A stretch of DNA of 64,000 nucleotides from contig CAWIYV010000009.1 in NCBI GenBank assembly GCA_963840455.1, forward strand, positions 96,001 to 160,000, given 5' to 3'. The notes under the pieces are model-generated. The model did no database searches. It was not told the DNA's origin and saw only the letters and a program-made list of their open reading frames with translations. The stretch comes from Nitrospirota bacterium. Lineage in GTDB: Bacteria > Nitrospirota > UBA9217. Both the position numbers and the translations under genes were made by a program. Below are positions 17,285 through 17,407 of this stretch, piece after piece (the first letter of the stretch is position 1; every line of letters begins with the position of its first letter).

Positions 17285-17407
17285 TTAGCTCTTTCAGCCC
17301 TTTCACTTGTGACATGTCATCCCAGGATGATCTTTTGCAGACTTTTTGAGATTATCCCAGAAAGCAGCCTCTTTCGCGAGGGCTTTTGCCGACAATGTCT
17401 TCTTCAT
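17285..17407 (-). CDS. Putative selenocysteine-containing RiPP precursor peptide, 40 aa (not in ORF track)
   Basis: AAGGAGGTGA RBS; MKKTLSAKALAKEAAFWDNLKKSAKDHPGMTCHK(TGA)KG(TGA)KS-TAA; TGA codons at 17305-17303 and 17296-17294; directly upstream of the rSAM/SPASM gene. Confidence 0.78.

Follow-up and report, generated by a model that had tools for sequence, protein, structure and literature searches.

The window analysed here is a stretch of 64,000 nucleotides (nt) from a Nitrospirota bacterium (assembly GCA_963840455.1, contig CAWIYV010000009.1, positions 96,001 to 160,000 of the forward strand). On its minus strand, at 17407..17285, it carries a gene of 40 codons plus TAA that contains two in-frame TGA codons and lies upstream of a gene for a radical S-adenosylmethionine (SAM)/SPASM enzyme. 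Read with TGA as selenocysteine (Sec, U), the gene encodes MKKTLSAKALAKEAAFWDNLKKSAKDHPGMTCHKUKGUKS*. We confirmed that this peptide gene is real and unannotated, and its sequence context indicates that both UGAs are almost certainly Sec codons. The evidence presented below makes it probable that the two-Sec peptide is a genuine product, decoded through a selenocysteine insertion sequence (SECIS), and that it is the dedicated partner and likely substrate of a SPASM enzyme devoid of the recognition element (RRE) of peptides that are made by ribosomes and modified after translation (RiPPs).

The locus had been singled out by a sequence-only reading of the window, which left the strand unstated. 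It is confirmed here on the minus strand, and the ribosome-binding site, the Lys/Ala-rich leader, the core and the 3-residue spacing of Cys, UGA and UGA described by that reading are all present in the sequence. The core has the form C32-x2-U35-x2-U38, with U38 as the third-last residue and both Sec at most six residues from the C terminus. Translation table 11 yields only a 34-amino-acid (aa) open reading frame (ORF; 17303..17407), and the peptide has escaped annotation since gene callers end the frame at the first UGA. As the sequence-only reading anticipated, gene callers do not see the peptide: a peptide profile run on a collection of 5.8 billion proteins returned 115 relatives, 94 of them 33 to 34 residues long, and all 115 were unnamed or called "hypothetical protein." The 17 that were inspected ended at the first TGA (in some cases with an extended N terminus), had TGA read as Trp or had diverged. 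No family in NCBIfam or Pfam matched the peptide at E ≤ 1, nor did the SbtA model.

We first collected relatives by anchoring on the enzyme and not on the peptide. In 61 related genomes, 21 enzyme orthologues were found, including that of the source genome, with 52 to 100% identity. The 450 nt upstream of the enzyme gene encoded the peptide in 20 of these 21 loci, with both TGAs in 20 out of 20. For one enzyme orthologue (locus L032, genome G011), these queries found no peptide within 900 nt upstream or genome-wide. A degenerate DNA pattern of the core matched 67 of 401 genomes of the phylum, with one match each, and the same pattern reversed matched none of the 401, so that the matches far exceed chance expectation. 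One of the 67 matches, in genome G248, was rejected as a chance match, as it ended in TGG and had neither leader nor hairpin. When the core pattern was searched over one genome per prokaryote species, at least 120 stretches were obtained, among which leader and hairpin cleanly distinguished family members from chance matches in A+T-rich genomes. The resulting family set comprises at least 81 loci, 78 of them unique, to which all counts out of 78 refer. The peptide profile gave 72 strong matches in the 401 genomes, with TGA at both sites wherever aligned; four further genomes with only weak profile matches (E 5e-4 to 9e-3) were set aside.

The family is conserved as a coding sequence of nearly constant length. 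A Shine-Dalgarno-like site and a start codon lead into a peptide of 37 to 42 aa in 75 of 78 loci, and the length is exactly 40 aa in 68. Residues M1, E13, C32, K34, U35, K36, U38 and K39 are invariant, and W17 and P28 are kept in at least 90% of the loci; since several core columns were fixed by the search pattern, these were excluded as evidence and the free columns were used. Within the core, position 33 varies between H, R, L, Q and F, position 37 between G, S, E, A and K, and position 40 between S, T, G, N and A.

Among the matches listed are also family members from records with the labels delta proteobacterium, Syntrophobacterales and Syntrophorhabdus. Four loci (L104, L128, L137 and L179) form a diverged subgroup with a core reading …KKCHKUKSUKG or …KRCHKUKSUK[S/T] and without the NPGK turn; their hairpins have an A-U loop-closing pair, and the enzyme gene lies downstream. 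The labels of these records are delta proteobacterium, Syntrophorhabdus and proteobacterium, with none listed for L179. This subgroup, with its enzyme downstream, suggests that the peptide-enzyme pair crosses phylum borders.

Three lines of evidence, namely coding-type variation past the UGAs, a covarying hairpin and the presence of Sec machinery, lead us to read both UGAs as Sec. Across the 78 loci, codon 37 is GGC in 32, GGT in 16, AGC in 15, AGT in 7, GGG in 2, TCC in 2 and another codon in the rest, whereas codon 40 encodes Ser in 70 (AGY in 67, TCN in 3). Codon 41 is TAA in 42 loci, TGA in 34 and TAG in 2, and it is never TGG, though the search pattern permitted TGG. Codons 37, 40 and 41 thus vary as in a coding frame that runs through both UGAs and ends at codon 41.

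Immediately behind the stop codon, the source locus carries a SECIS-type hairpin, at a distance of 9 nt from UGA2 and 18 nt from UGA1. In 76 of 78 loci, a hairpin follows the stop at a spacing of 0 to 6 nt, 9 to 11 nt from UGA2 and 18 to 20 nt from UGA1, with the loop GGUC, GGUCA, GUC or GUU; of the remaining two loci, one shows one mismatch, and in the second the hairpin is disrupted. In the alignment of the 76 hairpins, standard pairs occupy 99.4% of the cells and compensatory changes occur in 4 of 6 pairs. The loop-closing pair is C-G in 41 hairpins, U-A in 31, A-U in 3 and U-G in 1, and it is broken in none. The covariation score was 0.310, compared to 0.167 ± 0.013 for shuffled alignments, none of 500 shuffles reached 0.310, and slid-alignment controls scored 0.013 to 0.128. 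The rows were picked by a hairpin-seeking script, which favours pairing; only 2 of 78 were dropped. An Rfam scan of the region (16900-17600, E ≤ 10) found no SECIS family, only PsrR1 and GcvB at chance level.

The same type of hairpin is used elsewhere in the source genome. Three FdhA-like genes carry a GGUC-loop hairpin 8 to 11 nt after their UGA; they were kept as a control from a genome-wide scan for such hairpins, in which most of the 30 candidates were evidently not genes. The scan also flagged selenoprotein-like frames at C10:75603, C9:437160, C14:397542, C14:433100 and C8:80735 of this genome (G000; all on the plus strand), one of which, for example, reads …GGYU-PGTS…; the frame at C14:433100 has 19-nt spacing. 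The sequence-only reading had also invoked a second probable selenoprotein at 31147-31452. The ORF concerned (31452..31150, minus strand, 101 aa, …GITURAY…) does contain one in-frame TGA; its family match is weak and below the cut-off (NF049942 DF family (seleno)protein, 44.2 bits versus 70, E 1.4e-11), and it also matches Thioredoxin_3 weakly. The hairpin downstream of this ORF has a shape other than the GGUC type and is uninformative for comparison.

The expectation that the source genome decodes Sec held: it contains selA (606.9 bits), selB (383.5 bits), selD with an in-frame TGA (359.8 bits) and two tRNA-SeC genes detected by ARAGORN (G000:C1:311722-311820 and G000:C9:389438-389532). Over the 401 genomes, full-length SelB was found in 190, that is, in 65 of 72 peptide carriers versus 125 of 329 others.

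We then considered the link between the peptide and the SPASM enzyme, which the sequence-only reading had based on their adjacency and which is borne out by adjacency, genome-wide co-occurrence and a complex model. In 64 of 78 unique loci, the enzyme gene lies directly downstream of the peptide gene; measured from the Cys codon, it starts at a median distance of 169 nt. Two of the 14 non-adjacent loci are cut within 140 nt, one of which still shows the first 31 enzyme residues; in another, the enzyme is 1.4 kb downstream, behind an inserted ORF, and one more retains only a 23-residue enzyme remnant. The other 10 have different genes downstream, and the next long ORF is convergent in 8 to 9 of these 10, so the peptide gene stands alone there as a product-encoding unit. 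In all five unlinked genomes examined, an enzyme orthologue (56 to 60% identity) was present on another contig.

The enzyme query recovered 73 orthologues in the 401 genomes, all at E ≤ 1e-120. In the co-occurrence table, which was assembled by hand from the peptide-profile and enzyme-query results, 71 genomes have both genes, 2 the enzyme only, 1 the peptide only and 327 neither. The enzyme-only genomes are G011 and G145, whose enzyme copy has an internal TAA, and in the peptide-only genome G188 the contig ends 65 nt after the peptide. The distribution is patchy: of 5 other species in the genus, 1 has the pair. Tallied by family, peptide and enzyme match in 10 of 11 families, and the three exceptions make up the difference in the last one. 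Judged from these sequences, the pair is gained or lost together across 11 families, with the limit that related genomes are not independent. The short peptide gene thus adjoins the enzyme gene and is co-inherited with it, as in a RiPP pair.

Some unlinked or multiple copies were also observed. Genome G343 has three peptide-like genes (C3:991296-991409, C5:609552-609659 and C3:1337112-1337189), each with two TGAs, and a single enzyme orthologue that adjoins the C5 copy. At locus L190 (G287:C50), a decayed copy of the peptide gene lies ∼150 to 250 nt upstream of an unlinked enzyme gene; it retains a leader-like stretch, is one residue shorter after the Cys and holds a stop codon other than TGA where the first Sec would be, and genome G287 holds an intact copy on another contig. 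At L191 to L193, a conserved ∼115-aa membrane-protein ORF (…INALSIAAAVK…) precedes unlinked enzyme genes, according to a by-eye reading of the translations.

The enzyme is a radical SAM protein by its match to PF04055 (75.6 bits, cut-off 29.5) and its CxxxCxxC motif, and a SPASM protein by its match to PF13186 (46.4 bits, cut-off 21.5) and a 7-Cys motif (C253, C271, C309, C312, C318, C321 and C344). These seven Cys and the three of CxxxCxxC are invariant in 40 enzyme relatives. The protein starts directly with the radical SAM core, without an N-terminal RRE-like extension, and no further Pfam domain was found. Among the best 25 of 87 NCBIfam families, none reached its equivalog cut-off: NirJ2 scored 176.5 bits (cut-off 500), AhbD 175.1 bits (cut-off 500), the ACGX-system enzyme 160.1 bits (cut-off 400) and SbtM 132 bits (E 2.6e-38, cut-off 350). 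Membership in AhbD/NirJ2 was therefore rejected. In databases, the relatives are named "radical SAM protein" or "AdoMet-dependent heme synthase." The nearest solved relative by sequence is SkfB (91.1 bits, E 8.5e-25), followed by PqqE, CteB and anSME; Foldseek also returned SkfB (E 5.1e-14, template modelling score 0.60) and added SuiB by fold. The AlphaFold2 model of the enzyme was mediocre (mean predicted local distance difference test score [pLDDT] 70.2, below 50 in the SPASM part), and Foldseek was used for the fold class only.

A model of the complex, computed from an alignment of 40 sequences for the enzyme and of 53 for the 34-residue table 11 peptide, supports, without proving it, that the enzyme binds the peptide. 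The interaction prediction score from aligned errors (ipSAE) was 0.80 (0.80, 0.77 and 0.80 in the runs), and the best of 3 controls reached 0.01. As calibration, 58 of 80 solved complexes attained the mark used for ipSAE, as did 2 of 110 mismatched pairs, a rough comparison only, with own alignments used. The runs agreed in at least 81% of contacts, with partner pLDDT of at least 69. In the model, peptide residues 3 to 24 lie on the enzyme, docked at residues 55 to 61 and 285 to 300 (barrel and SPASM helix), and E13 and W17 contact the invariant enzyme residues W55, Y59, R287 and W290 with an expected error of ∼1 Å. Peptide residues 26 to 33 are placed along enzyme residues 229 to 231, 246 to 255 (including C253), 316 and 321 (C321), that is, along SPASM cysteines. 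A SPASM domain with only seven Cys would hold one auxiliary cluster with an open site, and in thioether-forming enzymes this open site takes the substrate Cys or Sec; the seven Cys here are putative ligands of two auxiliary clusters. Likeness to solved maturase-peptide complexes may contribute to the score, although these use an RRE, which the present enzyme lacks.

The features of the locus are collected in the table. Between the peptide and enzyme genes, the stretch behind the peptide gene folds at -48.1 kcal/mol (z -4.55) into a long hairpin that resembles a terminator or attenuator. In 41 of 62 intergenic regions, an outer stem of at least 7 bp preceded a 10-nt stretch with 5 T or more; a simple terminator scanner (loop limit 3 to 8) called the long hairpin only as a plus-strand mirror site. 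Across families, the outer stems at the 62 loci resemble each other in sequence (GGCAGATATG … CATATCTGCC) as well as in pairing; in the DNA, this stem is also an inverted repeat and may be a protein-binding site. An LtrA-family gene lies upstream of the peptide gene on the same strand. Apart from the enzyme gene, no neighbour is constant; the recurring ones are a YceI-like gene after the enzyme (19 of 78), a nitroreductase-like gene (10 of 78) and a pyridine nucleotide-disulfide oxidoreductase gene (6 of 78); nitroreductase-like and other neighbour names beyond the source locus were assigned by eye from sequence.

Features of the selenopeptide locus and its surroundings (window positions)
Feature	Position	Strand	Remark
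Shine-Dalgarno site AAGGAGGTGA	17414..17423	minus	strong; 6 nt 5' of ATG
ATG	17407-17405	minus	
Leader-like N-terminal part, residues 1-31	17315..17407	minus	Lys/Ala-rich, KEAAFW motif
Core C-H-K-U-K-G-U-K-S (C-x2-U-x2-U)	17288..17314	minus	
Cys32 TGT	17314-17312	minus	
UGA1 (U35)	17305-17303	minus	
UGA2 (U38)	17296-17294	minus	
TAA stop	17287-17285	minus	
SECIS-type hairpin GUUGCCG-GUU-CGGCAGC, 17 nt	17268..17284	minus	first base directly after stop
Long hairpin, outer stem AGGCAGATATG / CATATCTGCCT, U-rich tail	17199..17262	minus	terminator-/attenuator-like, between peptide and enzyme genes
Radical SAM/SPASM enzyme, 348 aa	16095..17141	minus	CxxxCxxC at C19/C23/C26
YceI-like protein, occasional neighbour	15537..16079	minus	PF04264, 163 bits
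Pyridine nucleotide-disulfide oxidoreductase, occasional neighbour	14139..15509	minus	dihydrolipoyl dehydrogenase 491.9 bits, cut-off 592

RNA data sets contained sequences of the locus. In a soil metatranscriptome run, one contig covers positions 17297-17421 with 1 differing letter, and two more contigs derive from the cores of relatives, one of which continues at its loose end (17285) into a SECIS-like hairpin. This is a weak hint that the peptide gene is transcribed, as only contigs were seen and DNA carry-over is possible. In RNA run X20, no contig extends over 17124-17270, and contig depth is 69.7 on the peptide and 3.3 to 3.9 on the 5' part of the enzyme gene; the X20 contigs cannot rank genes or show ends, so we draw no conclusion on termination or level.

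These observations can be assembled into a mechanism. SelB and Sec-tRNA would decode both UGAs, directed by a single fdhF-type SECIS behind the stop codon, which would sit at the canonical distance from UGA2 (∼9 to 11 nt) and ∼18 to 20 nt from UGA1. The terminator-like hairpin after the SECIS would make the peptide gene its own short transcription unit, the enzyme being supplied by read-through or by a separate locus. Dedicated to the neighbouring RRE-less enzyme as its partner and most likely its substrate, the peptide would dock through its conserved amphipathic N-terminal helix (E13, W17), and its Cys/Sec tail would be fed toward the SPASM auxiliary cluster and the SAM site. The enzyme would then abstract a hydrogen atom in or next to C-H-K-U-K-G-U-K-S while Cys or Sec sits on the auxiliary cluster, with a thio- or selenoether cross-link, or an SbtM-/anSME-like oxidation, as the outcome. 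No exporter or protease is conserved nearby, and the product probably remains intracellular, where it might act as a redox-active, selenium-dependent peptide or cofactor. A bolder version, which we put forward tentatively, is that the peptide becomes a selenium-obligate intracellular cofactor, matured by an RRE-less SPASM enzyme through carbon-selenium chemistry and encoded with one post-stop SECIS for two UGAs, an arrangement not known from bacteria, and represents a new RiPP or peptide-cofactor class in at least two phyla of anaerobes. Its chemistry could consist, for example, of selenoether bridges to the invariant neighbouring lysines or of locked diselenide or selenenylsulfide rings.

Several points weigh against a SECIS-decoded substrate of the enzyme, some of which concern decoding. 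The distance of UGA1 from the hairpin exceeds the FdhA spacing in the source genome and is the least secure point of the Sec assignment, and two UGAs 9 nt apart would have to be decoded efficiently by one SECIS. Full-length SelB is missing in 7 of 72 peptide carriers, whose assemblies are 63 to 96% complete. Of five exceptions that were re-examined, SelB was split over two contig ends in G193 and present only as an N-terminal piece in G024, and the search found none in G012 (96% complete), G007 and G219. A search for selD and selA in G012, G007, G219, G034 and G022 showed selD with an in-frame TGA in G012 and G007 and a selA match in G034. In the source genome, selA and selB are adjacent, and therefore one unassembled region could hide both in carriers without SelB.

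The check suggested by the sequence-only reading also yielded no Cys homologue to pair with Sec, since TGA was aligned to TGC or TGT in none of the 72 genomic matches and 115 database proteins. The search used a profile with U read as C on the 401 genomes and the 5.8-billion-protein collection and returned only TGA forms, shortened forms or misreadings of TGA as Trp; among the 115, the absence of a Cys form was judged by length and query coverage, the 17 mentioned above being inspected in full. This absence removes one classical line of support, which is replaced by the other evidence, and is itself unusual: according to the available part of the deep-Sep report, almost all selenoproteins have Cys homologues, and deep-Sep may miss those without (PMC12013277).

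The remaining points concern the function of the peptide. The enzyme lacks an RRE, and thus the usual means of leader recognition in a RiPP pair was not found. No exporter, protease, PqqD-like protein or small neighbour is conserved near the 78 loci, which is atypical for RiPPs. The best family scores of the enzyme, far under the cut-offs, are of the heme type. The complex model used the shortened peptide without both Sec, and its score is a model confidence rather than a measured value. Conservation covers the whole peptide, leader included, and fits a functional small protein or subunit equally well, and we infer the covalent modification, the reaction type and the cellular role, that is, all of the chemistry.

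The main rival explanation, which we regard as rather unlikely, is that the two-Sec peptide is an unmodified small subunit or redox partner of an enzyme whose true substrate lies elsewhere, for example a tetrapyrrole or another small molecule. In that case, the C-x2-U-x2-U tail could serve as ligand or reductant of an auxiliary Fe-S cluster, as a metal-binding site or as a redox couple cycling through a diselenide or selenenylsulfide. C-x2-C-x2-C is the spacing of ferredoxin-type cluster motifs, and conservation that is not confined to the core, the missing RRE, protease and exporter, the top scores for NirJ2 and AhbD together with the heme synthase name and the recurrence of redox neighbours at the counts given above all suit a subunit, which the co-occurrence and the docking model fit equally. 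However, the modelled tail heads to C253 and C321 of the SPASM domain, like the substrates of thioether enzymes, and the closest proteins of solved structure are peptide maturases. NirJ2 and AhbD score at only about one-third of their cut-offs, and separate paralogues (33 to 35% identity) exist in the same genomes. Finally, a highly expressed short gene and a terminator ahead of the enzyme would be the layout of a precursor gene. We favour a substrate over a subunit.

We judge it improbable that the small ORF is a cis-acting leader, through which Sec-tRNA or selenium supply would control transcription into the enzyme gene by attenuation of the trp or his type. The layout would suit such a device, with two rare-decoding codons close to the end of a short ORF, an adjacent hairpin and then a long terminator-like hairpin; in addition, the U-rich tail pairs with the K39-S40 codons in the fold. 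Yet amino acids are kept throughout the peptide, E13, W17, P28 and C32 being invariant or almost invariant, and the peptide is modelled to dock on the enzyme. Moreover, in 8 to 9 of the 10 of 78 loci with other genes behind the peptide gene, the next long ORF is convergent, which leaves nothing to attenuate, and the enzyme was kept elsewhere in every unlinked genome examined.

Even less probable is that UGA1 is the true stop, with a 34-aa product and the sequence beyond it kept as an RNA spacer of a structured 3' end. The table 11 ORF has this length, the 27 nt past UGA1 are short and A/G-rich, so that RNA constraint is possible, and UGA1 lies farther from the hairpin than in the FdhA genes. 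Against this stand the coding-type variation past UGA1 (codon 37, the AGY/TCN choice at Ser40 and a codon 41 that is never TGG), a hairpin of the SECIS type used by FdhA in the source genome and the excess of SelB among peptide carriers.

The closest precedent is SbtA/SbtM, a thio(seleno)oxazole RiPP system (PMC9204691) represented in NCBIfam by TIGR04081 and TIGR04082; the available part of a selenoprotein review lists SbtA as "Selenobacteriocin, SGUG, 2 Sec" (PMC13188914). In both systems, anaerobes encode a short ribosomal peptide with at least two Sec together with a radical SAM/SPASM enzyme, and gene callers miss or shorten the peptide. As the sequence-only reading supposed, our peptide is not SbtA-like, and membership in either family was rejected. 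TIGR04081 (27 positions, cut-off 30.5 bits) gave no match at the peptide locus, with its core CHKUKGUKS, even at E ≤ 10, and TIGR04082 aligned to the enzyme only over positions 199 to 516 of 516, at the score given above. A true SbtM is encoded on another contig of the same genome (G000:C14:122066-123595, 717.3 bits, cut-off 350), preceded by two true SbtA genes (48.4 and 42.6 bits; locus G000:C14:122066-124556, L198, L199 and L205), which upon read-through show three and two Sec in SSUSG/TGUGG motifs after a hydrophobic N-terminal stretch. Two distinct Sec-peptide/radical SAM systems therefore coexist in this organism. That the pair described here is a diverged member of SbtA/SbtM has hardly any probability left: a short Sec peptide adjoins a SPASM enzyme in both, Lys and small residues flank Sec in both and the enzyme aligns to the C-terminal two-thirds of SbtM, but the first ∼198 model positions have no counterpart in an enzyme far below the cut-off, the search that misses our peptide finds the two true SbtA genes, and the hydrophobic stretch and motifs of SbtA are absent. 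In addition, the leader is unrelated, there is no SGUG/GGUG motif, one hairpin behind the stop stands for both C-terminal Sec, and the enzyme, of 348 aa, does without the ∼200-residue N-terminal part of SbtM. Thus, the pair looks like a second Sec-peptide/radical SAM family, unrelated to SbtA/SbtM.

Other known systems share single traits with the pair. SCIFF and its radical SAM maturase form a two-gene, housekeeping-like ranthipeptide cassette of Clostridia, and the likeness lies in a minimal two-gene cassette with a fully conserved, Cys-rich peptide of ∼40 to 45 aa, no exporter or protease and a wide but patchy distribution. Our pair differs by Sec in place of multiple Cys, another leader and other taxa, and neither protein matched a SCIFF family (for the enzyme, among the best 25 of 87 families). 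The enzyme shares its fold and the CxxxCxxC and 7-Cys SPASM motifs with SkfB, CteB, SuiB, anSME and PqqE but has no N-terminal RRE, and it is predicted to dock its partner on the barrel and SPASM helix and to act on a Sec substrate. It resembles AhbD/NirJ2, its best NCBIfam matches, by full-length alignment; unlike them, it coexists with the paralogues noted above and shows a strict peptide pairing that has no counterpart in heme synthesis. The hairpin has the short G+C-rich stem and the G/U-containing apical loop soon after the UGA of bacterial fdhF-type SECIS, from which it differs by lying wholly behind the stop codon and by apparently serving two UGAs. UxxU and "UXX-star" selenoproteins have the same UxxU spacing and a third-last Sec, but, in the available part of the review, these are larger proteins (Prx-, Grx-, FmdB- or metal-binding types) for which NCBIfam models exist (PMC13188914).

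The literature searched holds no description of the peptide family, as far as the available texts go; supplementary lists may hold entries. The accessible part of the 2026 prokaryotic selenoprotein review lists SbtA and several UxxU and "UXX-star" proteins and nothing like the peptide (PMC13188914), and the accessible parts of the reports on CrpC (PMC13692751), on selenoproteins by Haft (preprint 10.1101/2022.07.06.499078) and on deep-Sep (PMC12013277) deal with other families. In this literature, SbtA/SbtM is the only other Sec-containing radical SAM peptide system. The novelty is that of a new family and not of a new principle, because SbtA already has two or more Sec. Three traits are unusual, namely two Sec without Cys homologues, one post-stop SECIS for two UGAs and the absence of an RRE.

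The peptide is common, being carried by 72 of the 401 sampled genomes of the phylum, and short selenopeptide genes of this kind are systematically hidden in genome and metagenome records. The pair is small (40 aa and 348 aa) and fit for direct biochemical reconstitution, and it offers a natural test of one bacterial SECIS serving two nearby UGA codons. No Cys version was found, which is rare among selenoproteins and hints that the chemistry or function of the peptide requires selenium itself.

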